Below are positions 1 through 34,758 of a stretch of DNA of 64,000 nucleotides, piece after piece; the first letter of the stretch is position 1; each line of letters starts with the position of its first letter. The notes beneath the pieces are model-generated. The model was not told the origin of the DNA and made no database searches. It worked only from the letters and a program-made list of their open reading frames with translations. The position numbers and the translations under genes were made by a program. Location: the IMG/VR virus record IMGVR_UViG_3300037222_000100, positions 32,001 to 96,000 of that record; one strand, given 5' to 3'. This stretch comes from a virus.

Positions 1-73
1 AGCCCTTGGCGGGATTCGAACCCGCGCAAACCCGCTTAGGAACCGGGCACTCTGTCCGCTGAGTTACAAGGGC
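1..73 (-). tRNA. tRNA-Arg(CCT)
   Basis: Cloverleaf GCCCTTG/CAAGGGC, anticodon loop TT-CCT-AA, T-loop GTTCGAATC. Lies at the window edge. Confidence 0.9.
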
Positions 74-84
74 GTACTACGAAG

Positions 85-490
85 TGGACCCTGTGGGAAT
101 CGAACCCACGTCTCCGGCATTCGTATTGCGTTACTATCTAGCAGCTTTGGGACAGGCTTGGCCCGTCTCCACCACTCGGTTTACGTCCGAGAACGGCACC
201 GGGCCGAAGCCCGACTGATGCACCACCTGGTTTGAGTCCAGGAACTTGTCGCGGGGTGCTACCAACCGTTTTCTGTTCCGAGGCGTACGGTGACCCGGCT
301 CTGACTAAACCAGAGCGAGAGTTGCCTCGCGAGCCGAGAGCGACGGGGAGTGCCCCGGTACGGGGTCTTCCATGAAGCTCGCGGGGATCGCGAGGGTGTC
401 TGTGTTGCCTGTTATGGCTTGTGTCAGGTAGGTGTGACGACCGCTGCGTAACAACAACCGAGTCTTACCAGATCGATACCTGTAAGGCCC
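85..490 (-). ncRNA. ssrA: tmRNA
   Basis: 5' GGGCCTTACAGGTATCGA pairs with 3' GTGGGTTCGATTCCCACAGGGTCCA, giving an Ala acceptor stem with G3:U70 and a T-arm. Internal resume context ATAACA-GGC; length 406 nt. Confidence 0.92.
305..409 (-). CDS. tmRNA tag peptide (A)GNTDTLAIPASFMEDPVPGHSPSLSAREATLALV
   Basis: Open frame from GGC after ATAACA to TAG at 305-307, with a hydrophobic C-terminus. Confidence 0.75.
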   Translation of the reverse strand, partial: GNTDTLAIPASFMEDPVPGHSPSLSAREATLALV

Positions 491-504
491 ATGCGGGGGC
501 GAGG

Positions 505-629
505 CTAGATAGCACCCCGCCCGCCGATGCTACTCGACTAACTGGGTACTGCCTGGATCACCCCCTGTAAGTTGAAGGACAAGGTAACCTCAGATGGCCC
601 GTCTAGAAAGGGCGAAGTCAGCTACCTAG
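505..629 (-). ncRNA. putative structured ncRNA (closed by 9-bp helix)
   Basis: CTAGGTAGC pairs with GCTATCTAG (G:U on the minus strand). Occupies most of the Val-tmRNA spacer. Confidence 0.4.
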
Positions 630-701
630 TAGACGATACTGGATTCGAACCAGTGACTTCCACGTTGTCACCGTGGCGCTCTCCCACTGAGCTAATCGTC
701 T
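630..701 (-). tRNA. tRNA-Val(GAC)
   Basis: Cloverleaf; CCACG-GT-GAC-AA-CGTGG. Confidence 0.93.
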
Positions 702-771
702 AGGCTGCCCGTTGCCACTGGTAGTCTAGTCCAGATGCCGGGCTCTCCACAGGCATTCAACCTGGGAGCAG

Positions 772-842
772 TACTCGGTGAAGGAATCGAACCTTCGTCG
801 TCACGGTGTAAACGTGATGCTAAACCACTCAGCTAACCGAGC
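772..842 (-). tRNA. tRNA-Val(TAC)
   Basis: Cloverleaf; TCACG-TT-TAC-AC-CGTGA. Confidence 0.92.
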
Positions 843-898
843 ATGTGCCCGCCCACAGAGGGACAGGCATCGCACGCCGGGCGAACCCTAAACGTGAG

Positions 899-972
899 CG
901 GGACCTACCGGACTCGAACCGGCGACCTCTGCCGTGACAGGGCAGCGCTCTAACCAACTGAGCTAAGGACCC
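899..972 (-). tRNA. tRNA-Asp(GTC)
   Basis: Cloverleaf; CTGCC-CT-GTC-AC-GGCAG. Confidence 0.95.
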
Positions 973-1051
973 AAGGGTGCCCCTGCGGGAGTCATCGTAT
1001 TGGGGATGACGGGCAGGGGACTTGTATGCAATTGGCCGATCTAGTCGGCAG

Positions 1052-1116
1052 CGGGGCGAGAAGGAATCGAACCCTCGCCTGCGGGTTTGGAATCCGCAGG
1101 TCCATCCAGGCGTCCC
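1052..1116 (-). tRNA. atypical or degenerate tRNA-Trp(CCA)
   Basis: Good T-arm and anticodon arm (TT-CCA-AA), but a vestigial D-arm and two acceptor-stem mismatches; 65 nt. Confidence 0.5.
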
Positions 1117-1124
1117 GATTACTT

Positions 1125-1526
1125 TTACTGCGCAATCCCGCAAGCGGTCTTGATTTCGTCAATGATGTTCAGTGGAACGTGAGAAATCTGTTCAAATTCT
1201 GTAGCCGTGTAGAGAGCGGTAAGATGTTCCGTGGAACAGATGGCCTGCTGTTCAGTAAGAATGGGGGTCTTTTCCTTTTCGATCTTCCTCCGAAGTTCAA
1301 GGCTTCGTGTCGAAGACCAGGAACCTTCCTTACCAAGAAATCCTTCGCCTTGCTTAGGATGGGGTACGGCTACAGCTTCCTTCTGAAGTTCCTTTGAGGC
1401 GTGCGTCAAGCCACTCGTAAGTGCATTGACTACACGTTCCCGCTCAACTTCGTATCCAGCGAAGAAGCCAATACCACCTGCGACTAGCACTGCTACGACG
1501 ATGAGGAGCTTCGCTTTGGTTGTCAT
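1125..1526 (-). CDS. membrane-anchored hypothetical protein
   Basis: N-terminal hydrophobic helix LLIVVAVLVAGGIGFFAGY; has its own leaderless promoter. Confidence 0.75.
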   Translation of the reverse strand: MTTKAKLLIVVAVLVAGGIGFFAGYEVERERVVNALTSGLTHASKELQKEAVAVPHPKQGEGFLGKEGSWSSTRSLELRRKIEKEKTPILTEQQAICSTEHLTALYTATEFEQISHVPLNIIDEIKTACGIAQ

Positions 1527-1532
1527 GCCCGT

Positions 1533-1561
1533 AGTCTACCGAACCACCGCTTGCTTGTCAA
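1533..1561 (-). promoter_or_regulatory. sigma70/SigA-type promoter, leaderless
   Basis: TTGACA-17nt-TAGACT, ATG 6 nt downstream. Confidence 0.8.
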
Positions 1562-1562
1562 G

Positions 1563-1631
1563 CGGGAGATCGAGGAATCGAACCCCGTCCTAGAGTTTTG
1601 GAGGCTCCTTGGCTGCCATAGCCTATCTCCC
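1563..1631 (-). tRNA. tRNA-Trp(CCA)
   Basis: GGGAGAT/ATCTCCC acceptor stem, CT-CCA-AA loop, T-arm; short D-arm. Confidence 0.85.
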
Positions 1632-1952
1632 TCGTTGATACGTGCGCTCCCTGTGACAATTGGCGCAGACGACTTCGCACTTGGCGATCTCTGCCTTGAT
1701 TGTATCCCATGCCGCTGCAATCTTGGCAAAGCGGCTAACCTCACATCTCTTCTCTCCGCGTACATGATCGAACTCCATCACGTAGTAGGGGTAGGCCACC
1801 TTGCAATCAGCACATGGGCGATCCTTGGCCTCACGGATGAGACGCTTCTGAGCCTCTATTCTGACCCTTTTACGGGCCAGAAGAACTTCACGATTGTCTT
1901 TCTGGTACTGACGTTGATACTCGATCTTGGCTGTGCCTTCAAGCGCCATCAT
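1623..1952 (-). CDS. HNH endonuclease
   Basis: CADC...FDH...KCEVVCANCH motif. Confidence 0.85.
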   Translation of the reverse strand: MMALEGTAKIEYQRQYQKDNREVLLARKRVRIEAQKRLIREAKDRPCADCKVAYPYYVMEFDHVRGEKRCEVSRFAKIAAAWDTIKAEIAKCEVVCANCHRERTYQRGR

Positions 1953-2071
1953 CAGTTATGTAGGAGAAGGTCATGGTTTTATTTGGTCACCATGACCTTC
2001 ACCCCAAGAGGCCGGAGTCTGACGAAGTACTCGCGGGGTGATCAACTCCCCGACCGCTCCTCGTCCGGCCA

Positions 2072-2143
2072 AGCCAACACTCGGAGTCGAACCGAGTTCT
2101 CTCGCTTACGAAACGAGTGCATCACCAAGAATGCTTTGCTGGC
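2072..2143 (-). tRNA. tRNA-Thr(CGT)
   Basis: Cloverleaf; CTCGT-TT-CGT-AA-GCGAG. Confidence 0.9.
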
Positions 2144-2146
2144 ATA

Positions 2147-2264
2147 GAACACAAGAGAGTGGCCCGGCAAACCCTGGTGACGGCGAAGGGGAGAACACCA
2201 CATTCACCCTTGAACTTCGACCGCAATGGTGTCCACGACATCTACTGGCGGACCTCCTGTGTTC
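2147..2264 (-). ncRNA. putative structured ncRNA (closed by 11-bp helix)
   Basis: GAACACAGGAG/CTCTTGTGTTC terminal helix with internal hairpins; fills the Thr-Thr spacer almost exactly. Confidence 0.55.
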
Positions 2265-2265
2265 A

Positions 2266-2337
2266 AGCCCACGTCGGGAATCGAACCCGAACCTCATCCT
2301 TACCATGGACGCATGCTACCTTTAGCACCACGCGGGC
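2266..2337 (-). tRNA. tRNA-Thr(GGT)
   Basis: Cloverleaf; CGTCC-AT-GGT-AA-GGATG. Confidence 0.9.
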
Positions 2338-2343
2338 ATCAAA

Positions 2344-2391
2344 GACCCGGCCGCATACCCCAGGTACCTGGGACAGAGGCGGGACCGGGCC
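2344..2391 (-). ncRNA. repeated ~48-nt structured RNA element, copy 1
   Basis: GGCCCGGTCCCGCCTCTG-[hairpin]-GTATGCGGCCGGGTC; flanks identical to those at 4038-4086. Confidence 0.65.
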
Positions 2392-2410
2392 GTACAACAG
2401 TCCTGTCCAT

Positions 2411-2538
2411 GAGCCCTACGGCTGACGACAGGAGCGCTCCGTCCGCGATCCCTCTACCGGGGGCCGACCGAGCAATAGGCAAGGAGTAACCCGCCCTGAG
2501 GACGCTAGCGAGGTTAGATCGCGTCCACCACAGGGCTC
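2411..2538 (-). ncRNA. putative structured ncRNA (closed by 11-bp helix)
   Basis: GAGCCCTGTGG/CCGTAGGGCTC plus inner CGCGATCT/GGATCGCG helix. Confidence 0.5.
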
Positions 2539-2567
2539 ACGCCTCGTGTTTCGTGTGTCACTCCTAG

Positions 2568-2641
2568 TCAGGATAGGAGGATTTGAACCTCCGCCCTCTT
2601 CGTTCCGAACGAAGCGCGCTACCAAGCTGCGCCATACCCTG
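2568..2641 (-). tRNA. tRNA-Pro(CGG)
   Basis: Canonical cloverleaf; CTTCG-TT-CGG-AA-CGAAG. Confidence 0.95.
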
Positions 2642-2650
2642 TAGATGCCG

Positions 2651-2786
2651 CATCGGGTAGACAGGTCCTTGCAGAATCCGCCTACGGCCTGGTGGCCGTG
2701 CGCAACTCATTCGGGACCCGTTACTTTCGATGTCCTCCGGGTCATGAGTCCCGTTGGATACGTCCCTCGCGATGGGATTTCCGACA
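2651..2786 (-). ncRNA. putative multi-branch ncRNA
   Basis: Helices TGTCGG/CCGATG, TCCC/GGGA, ACTCAT/ATGAGT, GACCCG/CGGGTC and ACGGCC/GGCCGT. Confidence 0.45.
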
Positions 2787-2787
2787 G

Positions 2788-2882
2788 TGCGCAAGACGGG
2801 ATTCGAACCCGCATTCGCTGGTGTGAAAAACCAGTGCTGTGGAGACTGTTTGACGGCCTCTCTACCGTTCAGCTACTCACGC
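2788..2882 (-). tRNA. tRNA-Glu(TTC) with 23-nt D-loop insertion
   Basis: GCGTGAG/CTTGCGC acceptor stem, CTGGT-TT-TTC-AC-ACCAG, T-arm; D-stem GCTG/CAGC encloses 30 nt. Confidence 0.85.
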
Positions 2883-2945
2883 ATGTGCTGAGCCAGGCTT
2901 GGCCTCAGCGTGGATGGACATTTGAGTCTGCCATCGATCAGACTA

Positions 2946-3017
2946 TCGGGAATGCAGGAGTTGAACCTGCGCTAGAGCGTTCCAAACGCCCGGTGCGGCC
3001 ACCAACACTTATCCCCG
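2946..3017 (-). tRNA. tRNA-Pro(TGG)
   Basis: Cloverleaf; GGGCG-TT-TGG-AA-CGCTC. Confidence 0.88.
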
Positions 3018-3060
3018 TAGTCGGCACGGGTTACCATGCCGAGGTCATACCGGTTGCTAC

Positions 3061-3363
3061 TTATTCGACAGGCGGCTCGACCGGCGCTGGCGGAGTTACT
3101 GCATCGTCAAGTGCAGTCGTGTTCGCCTCAACCTGAGATGTGCTTGCCGTGACCGTCGTCGTAGCCGCATCGACTGCGGCCTGAGTTGGGTCGTTCGTGA
3201 TCTTGTCAACGGCTGCGGTGACGGCCGTCGTGTTAGCCGCTACAGCGGCTTCGTTGGCGGCAACTGCCGCCGTGAGTGCATCGGTGTTTGCCACTAGCTT
3301 CCTCTGTTCTCGTAGTAGTTGCTCCAAAATCTCATGCTGAGATTTATGGCGTCTGTATTCCAA
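3061..3363 (-). CDS. Ala/Thr-rich coiled-coil hypothetical protein
   Basis: AAGGAGG SD before TTG at 3363 (alternative GTG at 3294). The longer ORF-track start overlaps tRNA-Ala. Confidence 0.7.
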   Translation of the reverse strand: MEYRRHKSQHEILEQLLREQRKLVANTDALTAAVAANEAAVAANTTAVTAAVDKITNDPTQAAVDAATTTVTASTSQVEANTTALDDAVTPPAPVEPPVE

Positions 3364-3389
3364 TAGACCCTCCTTGATTGGATGGGCAG

Positions 3390-3462
3390 TGGACCTGGAG
3401 GGACTTGAACCCTCTACCTCCTGCTTGCAAGGCAGGCGCTCTCCCAGATGAGCTACAGGCCC
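3390..3462 (-). tRNA. tRNA-Ala(TGC)
   Basis: Canonical cloverleaf with G3:U70. Confidence 0.96.
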
Positions 3463-3512
3463 ATACGGCACCCCTGTTCTGAGCCTTTATCTCTCAGCCA
3501 GGTGATGCCAAA

Positions 3513-3584
3513 TGCCCCCGTGGAGAATCGAACTCCAGCATCCGGGGTAAAAGCCCGGCGGTCTACCACTAACCATACGGAGGC
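3513..3584 (-). tRNA. tRNA-Lys(TTT)
   Basis: Cloverleaf; CCGGG-CT-TTT-AC-CCCGG. Confidence 0.9.
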
Positions 3585-3693
3585 GAAGGCCCAGACCAGA
3601 GCGTAGACGCTTCAATGCTTTCGGCTCCACGTCTACGGTTAGCCTGGGGTGCTGCATCATACTCGTGTGTCGTTTGCCGGAGTCATGTCCGGA

Positions 3694-3768
3694 TGCGGCC
3701 CGTGGGACTCGAACCCACAAGCGACACGTTCTAAGCGTGCCAGGTATACCAATTCCCGTCAGAGCCGC
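3694..3768 (-). tRNA. tRNA-Leu(TAG), short variable arm
   Basis: GCACG-CT-TAG-AA-CGTGT; 75 nt. Confidence 0.9.
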
Positions 3769-3772
3769 GTGT

Positions 3773-3873
3773 CCTCCTGCTCTCGATGCTAGGAGGGGTA
3801 CTCTTCTGTATTCATTCTTCGACATCGAGAGCGTGCCGTCCCATCAACTCCCTGATTGGGTGGGCTAGGGAGG
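3773..3873 (-). ncRNA. putative three-way-junction ncRNA
   Basis: CCTCC/GGAGG closing helix and a perfect 10-bp GCTCTCGATG/CATCGAGAGC helix. Confidence 0.4.
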
Positions 3874-3906
3874 CCATCGGTCTTACACCCTAAAGACGAT
3901 TCTTGA

Positions 3907-3989
3907 TGCGCAGGGAGGGAGTCGAACCCTCACGAGCTTTCGCCCACCACGTCCTCAACGTGGCGTGTCTACCATTCCACCACCAGCGC
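3907..3989 (-). tRNA. tRNA-Leu(GAG)
   Basis: Cloverleaf with long variable arm; CCACG-TT-GAG-GA-CGTGG. Confidence 0.93.
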
Positions 3990-3997
3990 GGGTGATT

Positions 3998-4026
3998 ATC
4001 ATAATGCCTCGCATACGCGAGGGCAA
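3998..4026 (-). promoter_or_regulatory. internal promoter of the tRNA operon
   Basis: TTGCCC-17nt-TATGAT just upstream of tRNA-Leu(GAG); an inverted repeat lies in the spacer. Confidence 0.55.
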
Positions 4027-4037
4027 AATTTTTCAAG

Positions 4038-4086
4038 GACCCGGCCGCATACTCTGTCCATGGACGAGCAGAGGCGGGACCGGGCC
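4038..4086 (-). ncRNA. repeated ~48-nt structured RNA element, copy 2
   Basis: Same flanks as 2344-2391, with a different but still pairing apical hairpin. Confidence 0.65.
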
Positions 4087-4093
4087 ACTACAG

Positions 4094-4171
4094 TGCCAGC
4101 GGAAGGAATCGAACCTTCTTGCCGAGGCCACGGGTTTACAATCCGCTATCACTCCATGTGATCTCGCTGGC
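4094..4171 (-). tRNA. tRNA-Tyr(GTA)
   Basis: GCCAGCG/CGCTGGC acceptor stem, TT-GTA-AA loop, variable arm. Confidence 0.88.
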
Positions 4172-4176
4172 ATGCT

Positions 4177-4290
4177 AGTTGGGTCCTTGATCTCCGGGCG
4201 CGATCCGACGAGCAACTTGATCCCACGCCACTACGCGTTTCGGGATCATGCGGTATGGTTACCGCTGCACTCAAGGGGTTTGCCCCAACT
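4177..4290 (-). ncRNA. putative ncRNA: bulged long stem plus three hairpins
   Basis: AGTTGGG/CCCAACT and CCTTGA/TCAAGG close GCGGT/ACCGC, TGATCCC/GGGATCA and a third hairpin. Confidence 0.55.
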
Positions 4291-4367
4291 TGGAAGGCGT
4301 TGAATATGTACGGTGCCTTCTGTGCCGTTCGACGGGGACTATAGCAGATGCTCTGCTTCCCGTCTAG

Positions 4368-4440
4368 AGCCCCGTTCGGGAGTCGAACCCGATGATCGCG
4401 CTTTAGAAGAGCGCTGCCTTTTCCGTTTGGCTTACGAGGC
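4368..4440 (-). tRNA. tRNA-Arg(TCT)
   Basis: Cloverleaf; GCGCT-CT-TCT-AA-AGCGC. Confidence 0.92.
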
Positions 4441-4448
4441 GTAGCCGA

Positions 4449-4602
4449 TGATAACACATCTCCCTGCTGAAACAACAAGAGCCCCGAAGATTTTCTTCGG
4501 AGCCCCTAGATTGGCCTACTTCTGGCGCGTCTAGGGACTAAGGGCCGACCGTTTCTCCGGCCTGCTTGGCGTGGTCATTCAGTTTGGGGGACAAATACAT
4601 CA
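4449..4602 (-). ncRNA. putative ncRNA at operon 5' end: long stem plus three hairpins
   Basis: 5' segment pairs imperfectly with 3' segment, enclosing GGCCG/CGGCC, CCCTAGA/TCTAGGG and GCTCCGAAG/CTTCGGGGC hairpins. Confidence 0.5.
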
Positions 4603-4608
4603 TCACGT

Positions 4609-4638
4609 ATTCTAGCACGGGGTCCCCCTTAGTTTCAA
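4609..4638 (-). promoter_or_regulatory. main promoter of the RNA operon
   Basis: TTGAAA-18nt-TAGAAT with extended -10 TG. Confidence 0.7.
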
Positions 4639-4690
4639 GGGTCCTCGGCGAAAACTTTTGCCGAAACAATTCTGAGGCGAAAGTTTGGGC

Positions 4691-4879
4691 TCAGCCCTCG
4701 GCCCAATATCTCACGTAGCGCTCGCGAAGCTCCCCCTCGGAACGCACGTCCTGATACCCGGTGGCCTCATCGATCAGAGCGTCCATCCCGACCTTGGCTT
4801 GGGCCATTAGCTCGCGACGATTTGATGGCTCGCACCACTCGCAGTCGCAGCATTCTTCATGGGGCAGTGGCTCAGGCAC
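4691..4879 (-). CDS. small hypothetical protein (P63C-like DEATGYQ motif)
   Basis: GTG overlaps the end of the ligase gene; CCDCEWC and ALIDEATGYQ motifs. Confidence 0.5.
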   Translation of the reverse strand: MPEPLPHEECCDCEWCEPSNRRELMAQAKVGMDALIDEATGYQDVRSEGELRERYVRYWAEG

Positions 4880-6112: not shown

Positions 6113-6835
6113 CTACCGAACCTGGTCCACAAAACCAAGCTTGAGAGCGCTGTCGGCGCTCAGCCACCAGTCCTTACGGTTCCAGTTGCGCTTGATGAAT
6201 GCCTTCGTCGTTTTGTTGTTGATCGGCTGCGCACGCTCCGCAAAGATCGACAGGATGCGCTCGTGGAAGATGTCCACCAGCTTGATCCGGTCCTCGACCT
6301 CGCCGTAGGAACCAACGGCTCCGAATGACGCCTCGTGAATCAGGAGGATGGAGTTCTTTCCCATGATGCGGTTGTCCGCAGCCTGGAGGATGACTCCTGC
6401 CATCGATGCCGCCATGCCGAGAGTCACGATGTCGATCTCGTGTCCCTTCTGACGGAGGTCGCTGAGGAAATCGATGAGCGCGAAGCCCTCGACTACATCG
6501 CCTCCGGGAGAGTTGATCTGAATCTCGATGGCACAGCCAGGCGTCTGGCGTGTCCATGCGGTTAGCTGATCGATGCACGCCTTGACTGACGATTCACCGA
6601 CCGGCTGGTCGAACACGTAGACATGGTTGTGCGCGTTCTTTGCAAGCTCATCCTTCTCGACGCGCTGCTTTGCGCGGAGAACGATCTCCTGCTGCTCAGC
6701 CTCGGCTACCTGGACGCGTGTTTCAGCCTCGAAGAGCGTTGCCTGGGACTCTGCCGCCTGGGCCTCGGCCAAGAACTTCTTCTTCTCCTCCGCTGAGGGA
6801 GGACGACTTGTGGATGTTGCGGTGGAGCTTCCCAT
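6113..6835 (-). CDS. clpP: ClpP-like serine protease
   Basis: INSPGG, GMAASMA (catalytic Ser) and LIHE (His) motifs; N-terminal coiled-coil extension. Confidence 0.92.
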   Translation of the reverse strand: MGSSTATSTSRPPSAEEKKKFLAEAQAAESQATLFEAETRVQVAEAEQQEIVLRAKQRVEKDELAKNAHNHVYVFDQPVGESSVKACIDQLTAWTRQTPGCAIEIQINSPGGDVVEGFALIDFLSDLRQKGHEIDIVTLGMAASMAGVILQAADNRIMGKNSILLIHEASFGAVGSYGEVEDRIKLVDIFHERILSIFAERAQPINNKTTKAFIKRNWNRKDWWLSADSALKLGFVDQVR

Positions 6836-26295: not shown

Positions 26296-27043
26296 CGTCG
26301 AGGCACAAGAACTCGGCGTCTCTGACGACGAGCGAGCGAAGCGCCGGAACGTACTTGAGAAACGTTCCGGCGCTGATCTCAAGAAGAAGTGGGAGCAGAG
26401 CGACCGCGCTGCACTAGAGCGGCGTGAAAACGAAATCGCTCCCGAAACCATCACATCGCCACGGTGTAGCGTCTGCCAGAGCGAACACCGCGAATGGATC
26501 GAGATCGCCCTCATCAAAGGGCACTCGTACAAATCGATAGCCGACCGCGTACCCCCTGACGAGGACGGTAAAGGCATCGACCGGCGCTCGATAGCCAATC
26601 ACTATCAGCACCACATGGATGTGGAGCGCATGGTGATCCGAGGAGAGCTTGAGGCCGAGGCCAGGGCGCTGCAACAGAATGTCGAGGAGGGAGTGCAAGG
26701 TGCGCTCACCGACCGAGGCATGCTCAAAGTCCTGGCACGCAAAGCATTCGATGATGTTATCAAGGGCGTCACGACGGTTGAACCCAAGGACCTCATTCAG
26801 ATCATCAAGCTCCTCCACGATCTCAATGAGAACACGGCCAACGTCAAGGCCGAGGAGAACGAGATCGCGCTGCGTACATTCGTGCGCTCTGTACAGGTCG
26901 TGTGCGACCAACACACCATCCAGAAGATCGTCCTCGAAGCCGAACGCATACGCAAACAAGACGACGTACAGTACGCCATGGAGGGTATCCTGGAGAAGCC
27001 TCTGCCCGAGCTAATCGAGGGGACGGTTGTCGATGGAGACTGA
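26288..27043 (+). CDS. Zn/HTH DNA-binding protein (possible small terminase-like)
   Basis: CSVC...G.SY..IA...SI.NH...H; function uncertain. Confidence 0.55.
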   Translation: MDNVEAQELGVSDDERAKRRNVLEKRSGADLKKKWEQSDRAALERRENEIAPETITSPRCSVCQSEHREWIEIALIKGHSYKSIADRVPPDEDGKGIDRRSIANHYQHHMDVERMVIRGELEAEARALQQNVEEGVQGALTDRGMLKVLARKAFDDVIKGVTTVEPKDLIQIIKLLHDLNENTANVKAEENEIALRTFVRSVQVVCDQHTIQKIVLEAERIRKQDDVQYAMEGILEKPLPELIEGTVVDGD

Positions 27044-27245
27044 ATTCAACAAGTGCGAGCACTGCGGAACGTGGCACGAGATCAAAACGACCACGTTCGG
27101 CGGCGTACCGGTCAAGACATGCCCATATATCCCCAGTAGCATAACGGGGTACTGGTATACTGGGCTAAGGGACCCCGATGAAGAGAACCCGATATCAGCT
27201 TCTTACAACCCCACTCTTGGACAAGATCGAGAGCTTGTCTCGTGA
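27033..27245 (+). CDS. small hypothetical protein
   Basis: CEHC..H..CP; overlaps both neighbours. Confidence 0.4.
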   Translation: METEFNKCEHCGTWHEIKTTTFGGVPVKTCPYIPSSITGYWYTGLRDPDEENPISASYNPTLGQDRELVS

Positions 27246-29133
27246 CGAGCAAGCTCAGTATCTCTTCCTGAGCACGAGCGACGAGTTCAAAGGTCGCTGG
27301 CAGGTCACGGCGCTCTGGCCCGACTTCTTCTTCGATTTCGAGGACATCATCGGGCACTATCGCACGGTGTCTCCAGCCAAGCTGGACGAATTCCTGTCGT
27401 TCGCAGATGAGACGGGTTACGTCATCGTCTTCGAGGACCCACCCGAGGCTATCTTGGAAGCATACGAGAGTCTGAAAGACCCTCCACCATTCTCTCTCAA
27501 TTCCTCCCTTGAGAACACAGTCAACGGGATGTTTTCGTGGCAGACGGAAGGGTTCAACAAGCTCATACGTGACGAAGACCTTCAGGCGGGACTTGTGGTC
27601 TGGGATACGGGTACCGGGAAGACGGCATTCATCGCAGCGGCCTTGAAGTGGCATGAGGAATGGGGACACCCATATGACCTCGCTCTCATCGTCGTAAAGA
27701 AGAACAACAAGATCGACATGCAACGTAAGATCAAGGCGCTTGCCGGGTTCGAGTCGTTCGTGGTCGAGGGTCCGCCCAAAAAGCGTGACCCCGTGTATGC
27801 GGCTATCTCTGATGCTCTCGCGGAGAAACGATCACCGATCATGATCACCAACTACGAGAAATTCCGAGACGATGACGAGATGTTCAAGTGGCTCATGGGA
27901 GGGCGTGACTGTCTCGTCTTCTGGGATGAGATGCCGACACGCCTGAGTGAACGCACAACGAAAGTCTACGAGGCCGTGCAGAAGTGTCTCTGGAAGGTCT
28001 TCCAACCCAAGAGAGGGCGACCCACAGCACGACCCAAATGGATGCGTCAGTGGGAGCTAACCGCCACTCCCATCGAGAACTCTCCTGCGGGGGTCTTCAA
28101 CTGCATTCGGCTCATGGTGCCGTGGCTACTGGGTACGGTCACTAAGTTCGAGAAGGAGTATGTGGCAGGGCGCAATGAAATTTCGAGGAAGCCCGAGCAC
28201 TGGCGACACCTAGATCGTCTGGAGGGACAGATCGAGCACATGACCCATCGCGTGAGTCGGGATGACCCCGAGGTAGCAAAGCTATTTCCTGAGGTCATGG
28301 AAGACCCGCTGATCATCGACTGGGATATGCGCGACCGTGCGGTCTACGACATGCTTGCTAGCAACGCAGTGAAAATACTCGAAGAGGAATCTGAGTCGGA
28401 CGAATTCAATGTGCTCGCGATGATCCAGGTCATGCAGATGCTCTGCGATGCGCCCTCTATGATCGGTCAGTCGGCCGAGCATCGCAAAGAGTTCCTTCAG
28501 ACCATCGCAGACCTTGGTGACGAGGACGATCTCCCCCGGCTGGATGGACCCAAAGGCTCCGAGATCGCATTGCGTCTTGTCGAATCGCTCAAACGAGCGC
28601 CAACTGACGACCACCACACTAAGTTCGACACCCTGCACGAAATCCTCACAGAGAAACATCCCAATGAGAAAGTGCTCGTGTACATGACGTGGGCAAGCTA
28701 CGGCTATGGTCCGTTGACGGCCAAGCTAGATGAGTGGGGCATCTCCTACGTCGCGTACACCGGGACTGACAAACAGCGACAGGAGGCAAAGGATGCCTTT
28801 CGCAGCGATCCGGATATCCGAGTCTTCCTCTCATCGGACAAGGGGAGCGACTCCATCGACCTACCTGAGGCTGCCGTTGGCGTCAACTACAACCTCCCTT
28901 GGACGTGGACCCGTAAGCGCCAGCGTCAAGGGCGCAACGACCGAGTGGATTCTAAGCTAGAGACAACCTGGTGGTACGATCTCATCATGGCCAACAGCGT
29001 CGAGGAGCGCAAGCGAGAAATCATCGAGATCAAGAAGGGCTACCACAAGGTTCTCTTTGACGGGCATGCAGTCGAGGACGCTATCTCCGCCAAGCTCACC
29101 CGCGAGGACCTGATGTTCATCCTTACGGGCTAG
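27178..29133 (+). CDS. SNF2-family helicase
   Basis: DTGTGKT, ITNYE, WDE, LTATPIEN, QRQGRNDR. Confidence 0.88.
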   Translation: MKRTRYQLLTTPLLDKIESLSRDEQAQYLFLSTSDEFKGRWQVTALWPDFFFDFEDIIGHYRTVSPAKLDEFLSFADETGYVIVFEDPPEAILEAYESLKDPPPFSLNSSLENTVNGMFSWQTEGFNKLIRDEDLQAGLVVWDTGTGKTAFIAAALKWHEEWGHPYDLALIVVKKNNKIDMQRKIKALAGFESFVVEGPPKKRDPVYAAISDALAEKRSPIMITNYEKFRDDDEMFKWLMGGRDCLVFWDEMPTRLSERTTKVYEAVQKCLWKVFQPKRGRPTARPKWMRQWELTATPIENSPAGVFNCIRLMVPWLLGTVTKFEKEYVAGRNEISRKPEHWRHLDRLEGQIEHMTHRVSRDDPEVAKLFPEVMEDPLIIDWDMRDRAVYDMLASNAVKILEEESESDEFNVLAMIQVMQMLCDAPSMIGQSAEHRKEFLQTIADLGDEDDLPRLDGPKGSEIALRLVESLKRAPTDDHHTKFDTLHEILTEKHPNEKVLVYMTWASYGYGPLTAKLDEWGISYVAYTGTDKQRQEAKDAFRSDPDIRVFLSSDKGSDSIDLPEAAVGVNYNLPWTWTRKRQRQGRNDRVDSKLETTWWYDLIMANSVEERKREIIEIKKGYHKVLFDGHAVEDAISAKLTREDLMFILTG

Positions 29134-29917
29134 CTACATCTGTCGTGGTGGCGGTGTCTTCCACTGTGCGCCGTCGATGTACCTGTCGTGTCGGTGCTGC
29201 ATCGACGGTTACGGCCCCCTCTCCTGTGCTTTCCCGGTGCAAGTGCGTCGTGCGTGTCGCCACGTCACTTGCCAAAGCCACATCGCCGGTCCTACGCTGT
29301 GCATGGGTCGTACCGCTTGCCGCATCATGCGTGAGGGCAGCATCATTGACATCGCGCACTCGTTTGCCTCCACGATGTATCCATTCGGGCGTTGCTGGAC
29401 CATCATCTGCTAGTGCGACATCGGACGTTTCTGCCACGCTTTTGACCGGCGGTTCTTCGGTGTTTTCTCCCCGGATCACATAGGGCGAGACGAATCCAAA
29501 TGCCTCATAAACGAGATTGACTGGGCGAGCAACCGACCAGCGCTGATTACGCGAGTCGATGACGGTGAGAGTAACTTCGATGTTCGGGTCTACGACCTCG
29601 AACGTATGTGTGACGGTCGGTCCAAAGCCTTCAGTGCCATCACCAAAGGTCCAGTGGTACTCCAGAATCGTGACTCCCGGAGGCGTGCGGACGTAAGGAC
29701 GTTTCGGATGCGCTGGATTGAACTCGGCTTCGAACACGACAGGGAGATGCACGGGCGTAGTGTTGAGCAGGTAACGCGTGTCACCTTCATATAGGGGTTC
29801 GTACGGGTAGGTGTCGCCGTCGTATGTAACGGAACCTGTCGGCCCATCCTGTTTGAAGAAGAAGTCGGCCTCAACATCGAGTGGCGGGAACGGAGGGTCG
29901 TTGATGATGGAGGCCAT
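29123..29917 (-). CDS. PKD-domain virion protein with C-terminal repeats
   Basis: WTFGDG..G.G..VTHTF..VTLTV.D; ~19-aa D.A...D.A repeats. Confidence 0.75.
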   Translation of the reverse strand: MASIINDPPFPPLDVEADFFFKQDGPTGSVTYDGDTYPYEPLYEGDTRYLLNTTPVHLPVVFEAEFNPAHPKRPYVRTPPGVTILEYHWTFGDGTEGFGPTVTHTFEVVDPNIEVTLTVIDSRNQRWSVARPVNLVYEAFGFVSPYVIRGENTEEPPVKSVAETSDVALADDGPATPEWIHRGGKRVRDVNDAALTHDAASGTTHAQRRTGDVALASDVATRTTHLHRESTGEGAVTVDAAPTRQVHRRRTVEDTATTTDVASP

Positions 29918-32397
29918 TAGACTACCACTATCGTTTCAGTGGACTCGCTGCGTAGACCATTGCGGTCGGTCACGACGAGAGTTGCGTGATAGGTACCTTC
30001 CTGCGTGTACCTGTGTTCAACGACCGTACTATCTCCTGCCTCGATGGCTCCATCTCCAAACAGCCACTCGCGTGAGATGATCGACGCAGTACCGTCTGTG
30101 GATTCATCAATGAATTCGAAGGTGCTAGGGTTCGTGCCATTGATGGTGAGTTTTGCGGTCGGCCCAATCTTGCCCGTGAGCTTTTCCTCAGGAAACACGA
30201 GACGCCCTAGCTGTGCGTATCGAGGGATGATCTTTGGACTTCTGATCGTGGCGTTCTGCCGCAGCGCTCGACCGCGTAGCTGTAGCTCTTTGCCACGCGG
30301 CGAGAGAAGAATACCCTTGCGATTGACGTTTACGATCTCCCGGAAGTCGGTCCAGGGAGCATAGTTGCTCTTCCATGGATCGTCCACGACTGATCGTGCG
30401 CTCCATTGCACGGCTCGCTCGAAGATCGAGACGCTATCGACCCACCAAGTAGAAGCCACTTTGGTCGGCTGGAGAATCTGAAGGGCATAGCGACCCGTCT
30501 GGAGGATCAGGTTATCCGGAATGCGCAAGATGACCTCCTGCCATTGATTCGTTTCGAGTTCGGGGATACCGAGCCTGTAGACAACGCCCTGGTCACTCAC
30601 GAGGTTAGCGATGATGTTGCTCTCCATGACCTCATCGATGCTCGTGTACCCTTTGCTTGGGAAGAACGGCGGAAACAGGTGCGGACTAGGCAGCGTCGGC
30701 GCATGTACGGTTTCGACTCTTTCGACCTGCCTCGGTTCGCCCGCGAACCAGAGGTTGAAACGAATCTCGAATTGCGAGAAGTCAACGACTTCGAAGAGGT
30801 TGGTTTCGAGCCCAACGTTGTTGGTTGTACCGTCTGTGTCTACACGGAAGCTTTCGCCACTGGTTGTACGAGCTTTGTCTCGCGTGAGTCGCAGCGCTTT
30901 GGATTCTGCGGGGTACTGCTTGAACCCTTGGTCCCAGAGTTCTTCGTTGCCCGTGAAGCTGGCAAAGAGTTGCGCGCCATCGACGGGTGTGCGGCTCTCC
31001 AGCGGGGCACTCTCGTATTCGGCGAAGCATACGCTCCGGGGCCTGATATTTTGGACATAGGCATCCGCATCCCCTAGGGTGGCCTGCCAACCGACGCGCC
31101 CCTTGCGCCTGCGGAAGATGCCGTCATCATCGATGACCGTTGAATCGAAGATGGGCTCCTGGATAACCGTTTTGTCGTTGTTGAGACGATAGATGCGAAG
31201 GCGTGCGGTTGACCCCGCTAGCGATGCAACCAATAGGTAGTTAGCGTTGCTATCGAGCGGTTCTGGGAGTTTCGGGAACACGTAGCCAGGACTTGTGGAG
31301 TTGGCCATGGTGATACTCGTTTTGACGGCATCCCATTTGAGCGTGAAGAAAACCCAACTCTGCTCGACGGGGTTTTCAACCGCGATACGCTCAAGGTCCT
31401 CCATCGTCTCTAGGTGATCAAACTGTTCCATGGGGCGTTTGTCGAATTCGCCCACTGTACGAGGGAGGAACTCGACAGTACCTAGATCGGGCTGAGGCTT
31501 ACCGTCGAGGTCAGACATAGTGATCCCAATGAGGTCTAGCTGGTTCTGGAAGATCATCGACTCCTCGCGGAAGAAGAGTGTGATGCTGTTGTCGTGCAGC
31601 GCTGACCCCGTATTGAAGGCAACCCCGAACTCCGTGTCGATTGGCGTCGGATCGTTGATCCCTGGCAATGGTGACGCTCGCCAGAGTGTGCTCTGGATGA
31701 AGAGAGGTCCGCTAGAGACGTTGCCATCGAGCGGCGTTGGTTTGCGGAGTCTACCGTTCCAGTTATCGAAGTCCACTGTGCTCACGACCCAACCCGGCTT
31801 GGCGGTCGGGGCAAGAACGAGCTTGAGGCCCATGATGATGAGTGAAGTGGGTTCATTGGCCACGACCCTGAAACGAACGCCGGTGATCTTCGACAGATCG
31901 ATTGCGTTCTGCTGGAATGCAGAACGCAAAACCCGGAATTTGCAACTGCCTTCGATGAGCGCATCGAGGCTAGCTTTGAAGGTAACCGATGCCGTGACAG
32001 AAGCGTTGGAACAATGACCTTCCGGATCGGAGGTAAGTTCGATGCGACTCTGGTTCGTTTCGATCCCCGCGAGCGGGAAGTCAGGCAACGAGAAGGTGAT
32101 GTAGTCGCTATCTGAGAAGTCCGTTTCCAGATCAAGAGGGTGGTCTGGCGTAGCTGACTCCAAGAACGTCAGTTCTTCTGTCGTGTCGAGTTTGAGCGCC
32201 GGATACTGGGCAACGGTTGGCTGGAACCCAAAGATGCCCTCGCTCCAGCGCTCATTCGAATCGGCCATGAAAGTACGAATGTCAACGTGCCTCTGGTAGG
32301 GGAAATGTTGGCGCGTTTCTTCGTCGTAAGCGTCATAGTTGATCCAGGCGTCCAGGTCGAACTCCTCGTGCAGCGGGATGTTAGAGCGTTCGGTCAT
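29917..32397 (-). CDS. minor tail/baseplate protein with C-terminal PKD domain
   Basis: WLFGDG...H.Y...GTY..TL.VTD; position in the tail module. Confidence 0.75.
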   Translation of the reverse strand: MTERSNIPLHEEFDLDAWINYDAYDEETRQHFPYQRHVDIRTFMADSNERWSEGIFGFQPTVAQYPALKLDTTEELTFLESATPDHPLDLETDFSDSDYITFSLPDFPLAGIETNQSRIELTSDPEGHCSNASVTASVTFKASLDALIEGSCKFRVLRSAFQQNAIDLSKITGVRFRVVANEPTSLIIMGLKLVLAPTAKPGWVVSTVDFDNWNGRLRKPTPLDGNVSSGPLFIQSTLWRASPLPGINDPTPIDTEFGVAFNTGSALHDNSITLFFREESMIFQNQLDLIGITMSDLDGKPQPDLGTVEFLPRTVGEFDKRPMEQFDHLETMEDLERIAVENPVEQSWVFFTLKWDAVKTSITMANSTSPGYVFPKLPEPLDSNANYLLVASLAGSTARLRIYRLNNDKTVIQEPIFDSTVIDDDGIFRRRKGRVGWQATLGDADAYVQNIRPRSVCFAEYESAPLESRTPVDGAQLFASFTGNEELWDQGFKQYPAESKALRLTRDKARTTSGESFRVDTDGTTNNVGLETNLFEVVDFSQFEIRFNLWFAGEPRQVERVETVHAPTLPSPHLFPPFFPSKGYTSIDEVMESNIIANLVSDQGVVYRLGIPELETNQWQEVILRIPDNLILQTGRYALQILQPTKVASTWWVDSVSIFERAVQWSARSVVDDPWKSNYAPWTDFREIVNVNRKGILLSPRGKELQLRGRALRQNATIRSPKIIPRYAQLGRLVFPEEKLTGKIGPTAKLTINGTNPSTFEFIDESTDGTASIISREWLFGDGAIEAGDSTVVEHRYTQEGTYHATLVVTDRNGLRSESTETIVVV

Positions 32398-34731
32398 TTA
32401 GTAGGTGAACCAATCCAGGTCTTCGACCACGAAGTCATTGCGGTCAGTATTTACATCGTCAGCACCCGTCTCGATGTAAAGCGATGTGTCACTTGCCTGC
32501 GTGTAGGTGTTGCGGATGAACGCTAGCTCGTTGAGGCCCGCGAAGTAAGCGCGGTTGTCTTCGAGGAGCGCACTCAGTTCCTTGTATTCGTGACGACAGG
32601 TAACCCAGAAGAACATGACTGGCATTGACTGATCCAGGATGATCGCCTGCCTGTCTAGTCCTGATACGGCGATGCTTGGGTTGCCTTCGAATGTGGGCGT
32701 GCCCTCGACAGGGTAGTTTTCCTGATTGTGAGCGTTGAAAGCAGCTTTCTGTCCAAGCAGCGTAAGCGGGTGTGCCCGTGCAGCGGGAGGCTGGAGGTAA
32801 GTGTTGATCGTGAGGTTGATCCTTTCCAGCGTTTCGGGGTCCACCTTATTGGCAGCGGGTCCGGCGATAGCGGGCGGCGGTTCAGGATGTTCTGGAGACA
32901 GCGGTCCTTGCTGGAGGCCCGCGAGGAGTGGTTTGTACGCGAGATTGAGTGCGTCGTATGCTACGCCTACGCGCTTGGCCACGAAGGCTGGCGTGCTGAT
33001 TTCTGCGAGGAATGGGGTAGCTACCCAGTCAGGGAAGAGCTTGTACTGTGTCGGCTTCTGATAGTCGCCCGGATCATAGGGTCGAGCTTGAAGTTGACTG
33101 AACTCGATCTTGACGAACTTGGCAACGATGGGTTCTGGTAGCACATACGTCGTCTTGACGGCAGTCATAAAGGACTGCGGGACGTGAATCCATAGCTTCT
33201 GCTCCCACTGTTCGTCCGTCATTTCTCCTTCTTCCTCGCTGCCGGTGAGGTCTGTCGTGTAATAGACATTGAAGGCCACGCCTGGCGTGATCGGATCGAG
33301 GAGTACTGAGTCGATGACAACGGTATCGTCTTCAACCTCTGGCTCACGAATTTCGACGGAGCCAGAGCGACCGCGCTGATTTTCCCACTTCGAGCTAGGG
33401 CTGTCGCCATCGATATAGCTCGCGGCGACGAGTCCGCTGTTGACCATGGCTCCGTCGAGATAGAACGTATGCGCTGGCGTTTCTACATCGTGCAGATCGG
33501 ACGGAAGAGGGATCACAACGCCCACAGAGGTCGTTCCTGAAGCCACAGGTGTGAGCGTGACCGAGAATCGCGTCCATTCGCTGGTGATTTCCACTCGTAC
33601 TTCTTCATAACCAACTTCGCCATCGCCGATGACGAGTGCCACTTTGAAACCAGGTCCTATGGTCCGCGCCCAGATCGAGAACGTAATCGGTTTGTTCATG
33701 CCAACCTGGATTTCGTCCTGGTAGGCTCCTTCGGGTTCGAAGTAGCGTTTGACCGGATGCTCGTGTGTATTCACTTCGAGGCAGTGCGTCCCGTGAGGCG
33801 TTTCGAGCGTGTTGATGACGTTGAGAGTGGCCAGAGAATCGTAGTCGGAGAACGCGAGGCGTGCGTGAAGTTTCTGACGGAATTCCCCCGCTTTGATTTC
33901 TTCGACAGTAAAGGGTTCGACGGGTGTGAGGTCAGCTAGCGGTGGTGTGACTGTCCAGAGAGCCGGGGGCTGACCTACGATGTCATACTCGAAGCTTGGG
34001 TTCGTGATGCGATTGATCGTGCCGTACACGGGAACCTCCGGGAACGGGCGTACATCGGAGTAGTGACTAGTGACTGCAAAGCTCGATGGCTGTGGCGCAG
34101 AGAGCCAGTAGCCCGTCTCGACGTTGCCCCCGACTGGAGCTTGTGCTGAGGTATGAACCGCAACAGAGCGGTAAGGGTCCCCCAGGAAGTCCGTGCCGCT
34201 GTCGGCGGTAAGGCCGAGGAGTCGGAAGCAGAACGAGCCGGAGGGGCTGAGAGGGGTCTTCCCGTCGCTCTGGAAGCCTTCTACGAACCCCGGCAGTGGG
34301 TTGGGGTGCGCATAGAAGACATCTTCGATTCCGGACGCCGCCTGAAAGCCGATTCGTAGCTGTGATACGTCTGTGGTCATGCTGGCGTCTACGGGAATCT
34401 CCTTGTCCAGGATGACATCCATCCAGACCTGGCCATCAGCCTGCGCCCCGACGACAGTGCCTTTGGCTAGCGAGGTCCAGCCAGACCCAAAGAAGTACTC
34501 ATCGATAGTCCAATTCAACGTGGCGATTTTCTCCTGGCCTGCCGCTATAGCCACGAGAAGTTGAAACCCAGAAAGGCTAGGAAAGCGCTGCTCGTCGCTG
34601 CGCGTACCGTGTCGATAATCTTCCGGAAGCCGGAAGGTTTGGTAGTGGAAGTCGGGACCAGCAGAGAGCGTCGCCGTCACGACGTTCTGATCGATCACCA
34701 CTCCACTGTATTCGGCGCAAACGTTCAGCAT
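32398..34731 (-). CDS. minor tail protein (carbohydrate-binding-like domain)
   Basis: NRITNPSFE...W.RFSVT...YIDG pattern; position in the tail module. Confidence 0.7.
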   Translation of the reverse strand: MLNVCAEYSGVVIDQNVVTATLSAGPDFHYQTFRLPEDYRHGTRSDEQRFPSLSGFQLLVAIAAGQEKIATLNWTIDEYFFGSGWTSLAKGTVVGAQADGQVWMDVILDKEIPVDASMTTDVSQLRIGFQAASGIEDVFYAHPNPLPGFVEGFQSDGKTPLSPSGSFCFRLLGLTADSGTDFLGDPYRSVAVHTSAQAPVGGNVETGYWLSAPQPSSFAVTSHYSDVRPFPEVPVYGTINRITNPSFEYDIVGQPPALWTVTPPLADLTPVEPFTVEEIKAGEFRQKLHARLAFSDYDSLATLNVINTLETPHGTHCLEVNTHEHPVKRYFEPEGAYQDEIQVGMNKPITFSIWARTIGPGFKVALVIGDGEVGYEEVRVEITSEWTRFSVTLTPVASGTTSVGVVIPLPSDLHDVETPAHTFYLDGAMVNSGLVAASYIDGDSPSSKWENQRGRSGSVEIREPEVEDDTVVIDSVLLDPITPGVAFNVYYTTDLTGSEEEGEMTDEQWEQKLWIHVPQSFMTAVKTTYVLPEPIVAKFVKIEFSQLQARPYDPGDYQKPTQYKLFPDWVATPFLAEISTPAFVAKRVGVAYDALNLAYKPLLAGLQQGPLSPEHPEPPPAIAGPAANKVDPETLERINLTINTYLQPPAARAHPLTLLGQKAAFNAHNQENYPVEGTPTFEGNPSIAVSGLDRQAIILDQSMPVMFFWVTCRHEYKELSALLEDNRAYFAGLNELAFIRNTYTQASDTSLYIETGADDVNTDRNDFVVEDLDWFTY

Positions 34732-34736
34732 CACAC

Positions 34737-34758
34737 ATTAGGGGGAAGAAGTGGTCTA
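34737..34758 (-). promoter_or_regulatory. putative late promoter TAGA-N14-TAAT
   Basis: TAGAccacttcttcccccTAATgtgtgATG. Confidence 0.6.

Follow-up and report, generated by a model that had tools for sequence, protein, structure and literature searches.

The HEPN RNase toxin AbiF is kept inactive by a hairpin non-coding RNA, as has been shown for RCd22 of C. difficile (PMC12373285) and for PbAbiF with its RNA AbiFr (summarized in PMC12737573). A distant relative of AbiF/D, the plasmid-borne PD-T4-5, provides abortive defence against phage T4 (PMC9519451). On the phage side, PhiTE escapes the ToxIN system by means of pseudo-ToxI RNA, a mimic of the type III antitoxin (PMC3475682), and an RNA of the abiF motif has been reported in cyanophage S-CREM1 (PMC9964418). 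Here we analyzed two copies of a hairpin found in the tRNA array of an uncultured myovirus, within a window of 64,000 nt (the whole stretch of DNA analyzed) that comprises bases 32001-96000 of IMG/VR record IMGVR_UViG_3300037222_000100. Because these hairpins belong to an RNA family that adjoins an AbiF-like toxin gene in bacteria, they are probable decoy antitoxins, and on balance we favor regarding them as orphan, toxin-less antitoxin mimics that would be released from a tRNA precursor, comparable to pseudo-ToxI.

The source genome is 167,869 bp long, is rated complete in IMG/VR, and encodes a tail sheath, baseplate J, DnaE and ribonucleotide reductase. Its 32 tRNA genes form a minus-strand array at genome positions 26360-36440, and 15 of them lie within positions 1-4440 of the window. 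Both hairpin copies are in the same sense as the tRNAs. Copy 1 (2344..2391, minus strand) is located just upstream of tRNA-Thr(GGU) (2266..2337, minus strand). Copy 2 (4038..4086, minus strand), a second copy that is peculiar to this phage and has a different apical stem, is located between tRNA-Tyr(GUA) (4093..4171, minus strand) and its downstream neighbor tRNA-Leu(GAG) (3907..3989, minus strand). All three tRNAs were called by both ARAGORN and Rfam, tRNA-Tyr(GUA) in the Rfam scan at E<=10. The closeness to tRNAs pointed out in the initial annotation, which was made from the sequence alone, was borne out, with copy 1 ending 6 nt before the 5′ end of tRNA-Thr(GGU) and copy 2 starting 6 nt after tRNA-Tyr; the end of copy 2 is 48 nt from tRNA-Leu(GAG). 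Copy 1 is preceded by the 5′ leader UGUAC (2392..2396, minus strand) and copy 2 by the leader UGUAGU (4087..4092, minus strand), which doubles as the spacer to tRNA-Tyr, and a (U)GUAN leader is common to phage and bacterial members of the family.

The exact flanks that the two copies had been said to share were found solely on the minus strand, at 2374-2391/4069-4086 and 2344-2358/4038-4052, the numbers of matches expected by chance being 0.11 and 0.14 for the two flanks. The repeat (family D10) extends 5 nt further in the 3′ direction with one mismatch. A pattern scan and a covariance model agreed on exactly two copies in the whole genome. Each copy folds as one long interrupted hairpin, as had been predicted, with energies of -27.5 and -26.2 kcal/mol (z -2.3 and -2.8), and folding is better on the minus strand than on the plus strand. 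The inner loop, which had been described as CUCUG opposite UAU, is present, although its makeup is different from that description: both the fold and 25 relatives place CUC opposite a single U, and the pairs that come after this loop, U-A and then G.U or G-C, are always formed. A 2-nt bulge noted below it needs a similar revision, since the pair at columns 10/64 of the alignment is mismatched in 15 of 20 members, which makes the bulge a 3-by-1 loop in most of them. Two additional hairpins with an unpaired CUCUG (~846-870 and 3590-3648), which had been connected with the repeat, did not hold up. Neither was found by the covariance model, and CUCUG occurs at chance level on the minus strand of positions 1-4700 (6 occurrences vs 4.7 +/- 2.1 in shuffles). 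A K-turn reading of the inner loop was dropped on inspection by eye, there being no tandem G.A pairs. No U-run of an intrinsic terminator directly follows the window copies, which are succeeded by UUUGAU and the tRNA, and by CUUGAAAAAUUUU, respectively.

The initial annotation had taken the repeat for a selected structured RNA and had suggested a covariance-model search for homologs. Such searches, with a model built from the two window copies (R1) and a later model (R2), found 25 members in phages, bacteria and plasmids, and the homologs, their covariation and their fixed loops strongly support a selected structure. The window copies scored 66.7 bits (copy 1) and 70.3 bits (copy 2) with R1, and 50.2 and 51.2 bits with R2. 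Model-based alignments were used, as MAFFT misaligned the homolog of one related phage (L004). In the model-fitted alignment of the 25 members (A8), whose structure excludes the mismatch-prone pair at columns 10/64, standard pairs are formed in 339 of 339 stem cells, and both bases change in 9 of 15 pairs. This result was reached by 0 of 500 shuffles, and slid controls gave 21-43% pairing. The G.U pairs are compatible with the hairpin strand only.

From the base upward, the consensus consists of a 7-bp basal stem, a 3-by-1 loop, a 3-bp stem (CGC/GCG), a second 3-by-1 loop whose letters are fixed as CUC opposite U, and an upper stem that begins with U-A, continues with G-C or G.U and then C-G, and carries an apical part of 3-33 nt. 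Loop letters are almost fixed throughout the family, while the basal stem is free in sequence and keeps its pairing, with 5 of 7 pairs changing on both sides across members. The "swapped" top of the two window copies is explained by this freedom of the apical part to vary. The combination of fixed loops and freely covarying stems argues for a protein, rather than a complementary RNA, as the recognizer, and we infer that the hairpin is bound by a protein, the candidate partner being the AbiF-like HEPN protein encoded beside the bacterial copies. The window copies have the stem architecture of the family with its compensatory changes, the fixed CUC/U loop and the (U)GUAN leader. A scan with all Rfam families (gathering thresholds over the whole window, and E<=10 over positions 1-4700) found nothing on the hairpins and returned only tRNAs and a weak tmRNA.

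Using ribonucleotide reductase (RNR) as bait, we obtained syntenic tRNA arrays from uncultured relatives of the phage. R1 matched in L004 at a position 5 nt upstream of tRNA-Thr(GGU), where the neighboring tRNA sequence is strongly diverged, and pattern scans together with the model added five further phage members (L021, L076, L089, L094 and L022). The copies in L021 and L076 are also upstream of tRNA-Thr(GGU), those in L089 and L094 fill the spacer from tRNA-Pro(CGG) to tRNA-Thr(GGU) exactly, with 4-5 nt on each side, and the copy in L022 is between tRNA-Gln and tRNA-His. Each of these six related phage contigs has one copy, in tRNA sense and 3-7 nt from a tRNA end. The slot of copy 1, which is occupied in L004, L021, L076, L089 and L094, is the ancestral one. 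Copy 2 is a later duplication within this phage, because its slot, the one after tRNA-Tyr, holds an unrelated hairpin with a 9-bp stem in L004 (15402-15470, plus strand). Outside this group, a short-form hairpin was found in an unrelated siphovirus-like fragment (L268:1501-1537, minus strand), flanked by the genes for a tail tube protein (Phage_tube_2) and a tail assembly chaperone and co-oriented with both; the 22-kb record of this fragment has no Abi gene.

Sequence patterns alone recovered few members. The exact two-flank pattern had no match in IMG/VR, and the first degenerate pattern found only L004. A relaxed pattern run on metagenome and genome collections matched 125 stretches, of which 5 passed a base-pairing filter and the remainder were chance-like, and a 14-mer of the bacterial core matched 94 viral stretches, only one of them with the complete hairpin. 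By blastn, the hairpin gave nothing meaningful against GenBank phages and complete E. coli genomes, and the surrounding region showed no similarity to GenBank phages beyond short tRNA-Ala matches.

The link to an Abi gene came from pattern matches in two tRNA-free contigs, L128 and L043, in which the hairpin lies ~17 nt from the start codon of a divergent gene that matches Pfam Abi_2. The subfamily of this gene (~235 aa) is large and well conserved. DNA was fetched for a sample of its members, which gave 15 distinct bacterial and plasmid loci, among them one of Bosea sp. AS-1 on the conjugative plasmid NZ_CP022370, where a 239-aa CDS adjoins the hairpin at L271:2500-2538. All 15 carry the hairpin in a form of 36-52 nt, encoded on the strand opposite to Abi and 22-30 nt ahead of its start. 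The same arrangement, with a diverged hairpin, was seen for an Abi gene of 39% identity. Read along the strand of the hairpin, 12 of 13 loci have a TTGACN box ~40 nt upstream of the hairpin, a spacer of 17-18 nt, and a TATCCT-like box that ends 10-13 nt before the hairpin (10 in most); a short leader of the GUAG type, the hairpin itself and, a few nt later, a U-run come next in the same proportion of loci. This layout of sigma-70-like promoter boxes, leader and U-run indicates that the bacterial hairpin is an independent RNA gene of ~55-60 nt, the promoter of which overlaps the Abi ribosome-binding site and first codons. The bacterial loci had no Rfam family match (six loci, with RF03085 at E<=10). 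Homologs of the Abi protein were found in only 5 of 401 genomes sampled from the class of the L128 genome (a Ca. Thiosymbion metagenome-assembled genome, Gammaproteobacteria).

The Abi protein scores 31.5 bits against Pfam Abi_2 and 62 bits against the PADLOC model PD-T4-5, and the R-x4-H motif of HEPN proteins is invariant in the subfamily, for which metagenomes yield more than 1,000 to 2,000 homologs, mostly annotated as hypothetical. The AlphaFold (AF2) model of the protein has a pLDDT of 88.7. Foldseek matched this model to 8vz6_A, the structure of PbAbiF bound to its non-coding RNA, with a probability of 1.0 and a TM of 0.62, and VIA-align superimposed the two with a Z of 12.7 and an rmsd of 3.3 Å over 204 residues, the next matches being HEPN domains with Z of about 5-6 (next 6.3). 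Sequence and profile searches of the protein against PDB chains found no match, and its link to PbAbiF is by fold comparison; as modeled, the Abi protein has an AbiF-like fold.

No homolog of the Abi_2 protein or its subfamily (P0001) was found in this complete phage, nor in a second complete relative. Three traits of the bacterial loci, namely the adjoining opposite-strand Abi_2/HEPN gene, a promoter of the RNA's own and the U-tract, have no match at the phage copies, which do retain the bacterial-type leader. Since the phage has no Abi gene, and its copies are in a tRNA array and have no U-tract, they are orphan members of the family.

Our reading of these data is as follows. The bacterial RNA would be an antitoxin that holds the HEPN toxin inactive, binding it through the two fixed asymmetric loops, like AbiFr and RCd22. 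The phage would transcribe its copies within a long tRNA precursor, from which RNase P and the 3′ tRNA-processing enzymes would cut them 3-7 nt from each side; RNase P cleavage at the 5′ end of tRNA-Thr(GGU) would set the 3′ end of copy 1, and 3′ processing of tRNA-Tyr would free the 5′ end of copy 2. A stable RNA of ~55-65 nt would in this way be released early in infection and replace the decaying host antitoxin, so that the toxin would stay silent and the infected cell would not kill itself. The two copies may provide a higher dose or cover two toxin variants.

PhiTE provides the closest parallel, as in both cases a phage RNA resembles a host RNA antitoxin in a phage without the toxin gene. 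The outcome that we infer, escape from abortive infection, is the same as that shown for PhiTE. The toxin is different, ToxN for PhiTE versus an AbiF-like HEPN protein for the window family, and so is the RNA, which is a repeated pseudoknot unit in pseudo-ToxI and a single hairpin in a tRNA array here. To our knowledge, pseudo-ToxI is the only prior case of phage RNA mimicry of an antitoxin.

The abiF motif of Rfam (RF03085, gathering threshold 37 bits) is the closest described RNA, and Synechococcus phage S-CREM1 served as a positive control for it, its motif (OP535465 10531-10567; L274:1032-1068, plus strand) scoring 52.2 bits. The S-CREM1 RNA is located inside a tRNA array, where 29 nt separate it from the preceding tRNA-Asn and 4 nt from the following tRNA-Gly; this is the same kind of slot as that of the window hairpins. 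The abiF motif and the window family are also alike in being short GC-rich hairpins linked to an Abi_2/HEPN gene, and for the window family the association with an AbiF-type protein was seen at each of the 15 bacterial loci, with the fold match to 8vz6_A given above. Comparison of the Rfam consensus with our alignment revealed a common core, which consists of a 3-bp stem ending in GC, followed by CUCU in the 5′ strand and AU-GC in the 3′ strand. However, the asymmetry of the lower loop is opposite (3 nt on the 5′ side vs 1 nt in the window family, 1 nt vs 6 in abiF), and the window family closes at the top into a stem of variable length, where abiF has an open 11-nt loop. Given the shared core, these differences, and the fact that neither model detects the other, we consider the window family to be a related but distinct RNA and not a member of RF03085.

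Several observations weigh against the decoy reading. The known abiF RNA lies upstream of the toxin gene on the toxin's strand, whereas the bacterial RNA of the window family is on the opposite strand with its own promoter. RF03085 had no match at E<=10 in positions 1-4700 of the window or in six bacterial loci, and R2 gave no score on the S-CREM1 abiF hairpin. By model search, the closest complete relative according to RNR (L003) has no copy of the hairpin. Upper stems are longer in the phage forms than in the sampled bacterial forms, and the basal stems of the two differ in sequence. The pair counts of A8 are flattered by the fitting of the alignment to the model, although compensatory changes are plain in the raw family sequences. 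Toxicity, binding and neutralization are extrapolated from distant relatives (14% identity to PbAbiF), and carriage of the toxin by the host of the phage is presumed. Finally, the inverted orientation of the RNA gene means that it could act by an antisense mode instead of by binding a protein.

This antisense mode would itself be a form of anti-defense. The bacterial RNA would regulate the mRNA of the abi operon as a cis-antisense RNA (type I-like), and the phage copy would pair with a conserved complementary stretch in the 5′ region of the host abi mRNA and block or destabilize it. In favor of this mode, the RNA gene runs antisense to the intergenic DNA directly ahead of the Abi start, with a promoter that overlaps the ribosome-binding site and first codons of Abi, and its nearly invariant core would make a phage copy complementary to many abi loci. 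However, a cis pair co-varies automatically and needs neither fixed loops nor compensatory stem changes, both of which are seen; transcription is predicted to begin upstream of the ribosome-binding site and to proceed away from it; and the basal stems of phage and bacterial copies are unlike in sequence. We consider this explanation unlikely. The same can be said, in our estimate, of a hairpin that acts in cis in the processing or insulation of the tRNA precursor, such as an RNase III-type site like T7 R1.1, with no later role. An interrupted helix of ~20 bp that contains internal loops and, in eight phage copies, lies 3-7 nt from tRNA ends would suit such a role, but most tRNA spacers of the array have no hairpin, a spacer does not need fixed loop letters, and the copy in L022 serves other tRNAs. 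Another copy is in a siphovirus tail operon, and the same RNA stands alone beside Abi genes with its own promoter and U-tract. A role in processing or spacing only is improbable for an RNA that is also found by itself, far away from tRNAs.

A role at the DNA level alone, whether as a site of recombination or endonuclease action or as a miniature mobile element, would be in keeping with two copies that have identical flanks and with apical inserts that are both perfect DNA palindromes. The G.U pairs, however, are kept on one strand only, as are the bacterial promoter and terminator signals; this strand specificity, together with copies that are all co-oriented with transcription units and compensatory changes across 25 members, makes a DNA repeat highly unlikely. 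The analogy to Y RNA that the initial annotation had drawn is harder still to sustain. A Ro60-binding RNA of this kind was suggested by the GC-rich bulged terminal stem, with GGUCCGG as its 5′ strand in some members, and by its nearness to tRNAs, as Y RNA and YrlA have a bulged terminal stem and are near tRNA-like sequence. All the defining features that we tested are lacking, however: there is no Rfam Y_RNA or YrlA match at E<=10, the basal-stem sequence is not conserved, no tRNA-like domain is present inside the stem, and no Ro60 gene (TROVE, PF05731) was found in the 168-kb genome by a search that detected it in control genomes. We regard this explanation as scarcely credible. The orphan antitoxin mimic remains our preferred reading.

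Other features of the loci were also noted. In most bacterial loci, a winged-helix protein of ~170 aa (RP-C/DnaD_N/HTH_36) precedes the Abi gene on the same strand, for example at L154:1925-2431 (plus strand), with equivalents in L156, L158, L166 and L171, and the bacterial module may have three parts, the winged-helix protein, Abi and the RNA. The surroundings of the bacterial loci include integrase, ParD, BrnTA and restriction genes.

Within the phage array, a second conserved module is located just upstream of copy 1 (2397-2478, minus strand). It has a near-invariant block of ~27 nt, the start of which resembles a tRNA D-arm with an insertion, after which come a stretch of partial conservation, a small hairpin that covaries and a U-rich tail. 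A 19-mer of the block recurs exactly in six viral contigs, and in two of them (L019 and L020) there are no tRNAs nearby and a terminator-like hairpin comes after the block. The module has no Rfam match and may be another small RNA or a promoter. The possibility that the block and copy 1 form one longer RNA was considered and dropped, as block and hairpin are apart in L022, and in L089 and L094 the hairpin is alone between two tRNAs. The sequence directly after copy 2 (3996-4032, minus strand) is first rich in A/T and then forms a small hairpin with the loop GUAU; both features are kept in L004 though the element in front differs there, and this region may be an internal promoter or terminator of the tRNA array. 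Array spacers seem to be exchangeable slots for structured RNAs.

A 95-nt tRNA at 2788-2882 (minus strand) was found by Rfam (56 bits) and missed by ARAGORN; it can be read as a tRNA-Glu(UUC) whose D region is ~23 nt longer than usual, and it has a look-alike in L004. Positions 82-490 (minus strand) gave a tmRNA-like Rfam match of 27.7 bits, below the threshold of 47, and ARAGORN called tmRNAs at the syntenic place in the relatives L003, L021 and L022. No RNase P RNA of the phage was confirmed at Rfam gathering thresholds. Just upstream of the tRNA array, and co-oriented with it, are genes for an RNA ligase family protein (PF09414; 4872-5621, minus strand) and a ClpP-like protease (6113-6835, minus strand).

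A precedent for small RNAs of this placement is found in phage T4, the tRNA cluster of which encodes stable non-tRNA RNAs, species 1 and 2. Like the window hairpins, they are located between tRNA genes and are expected to be released by tRNA-processing enzymes, but the two have no relation in sequence or structure, and we know of no partner of the T4 species. A broader proposal, for and against which we see the scales as evenly poised, is that phage tRNA arrays double as expression platforms for RNA counter-defense, in which orphan copies of the antitoxin hairpins of AbiF-like HEPN toxins have been slotted between tRNAs and would thereby be released by the tRNA-processing enzymes. This would have arisen independently with two antitoxin RNAs, the window family and the canonical abiF motif in S-CREM1, and the bacterial module would be an undescribed type of AbiF system, with an inverted RNA gene whose promoter overlaps the translation start of the toxin.

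If our reading is true, the window hairpins would represent a second, natural and widespread case of phage RNA mimicry of an antitoxin, and would give a concrete function to some of the non-tRNA sequence that is unexplained in the large tRNA arrays of phages. It would also define a non-coding RNA partner for a large Abi_2/HEPN subfamily, with a bacterial-side RNA that is absent from Rfam and is arranged unlike that of known AbiF systems. AbiF-like HEPN toxins are the ancestors of Cas13, and the family described here would bear on how a toxin-bound hairpin RNA could have evolved towards a Cas13 guide.

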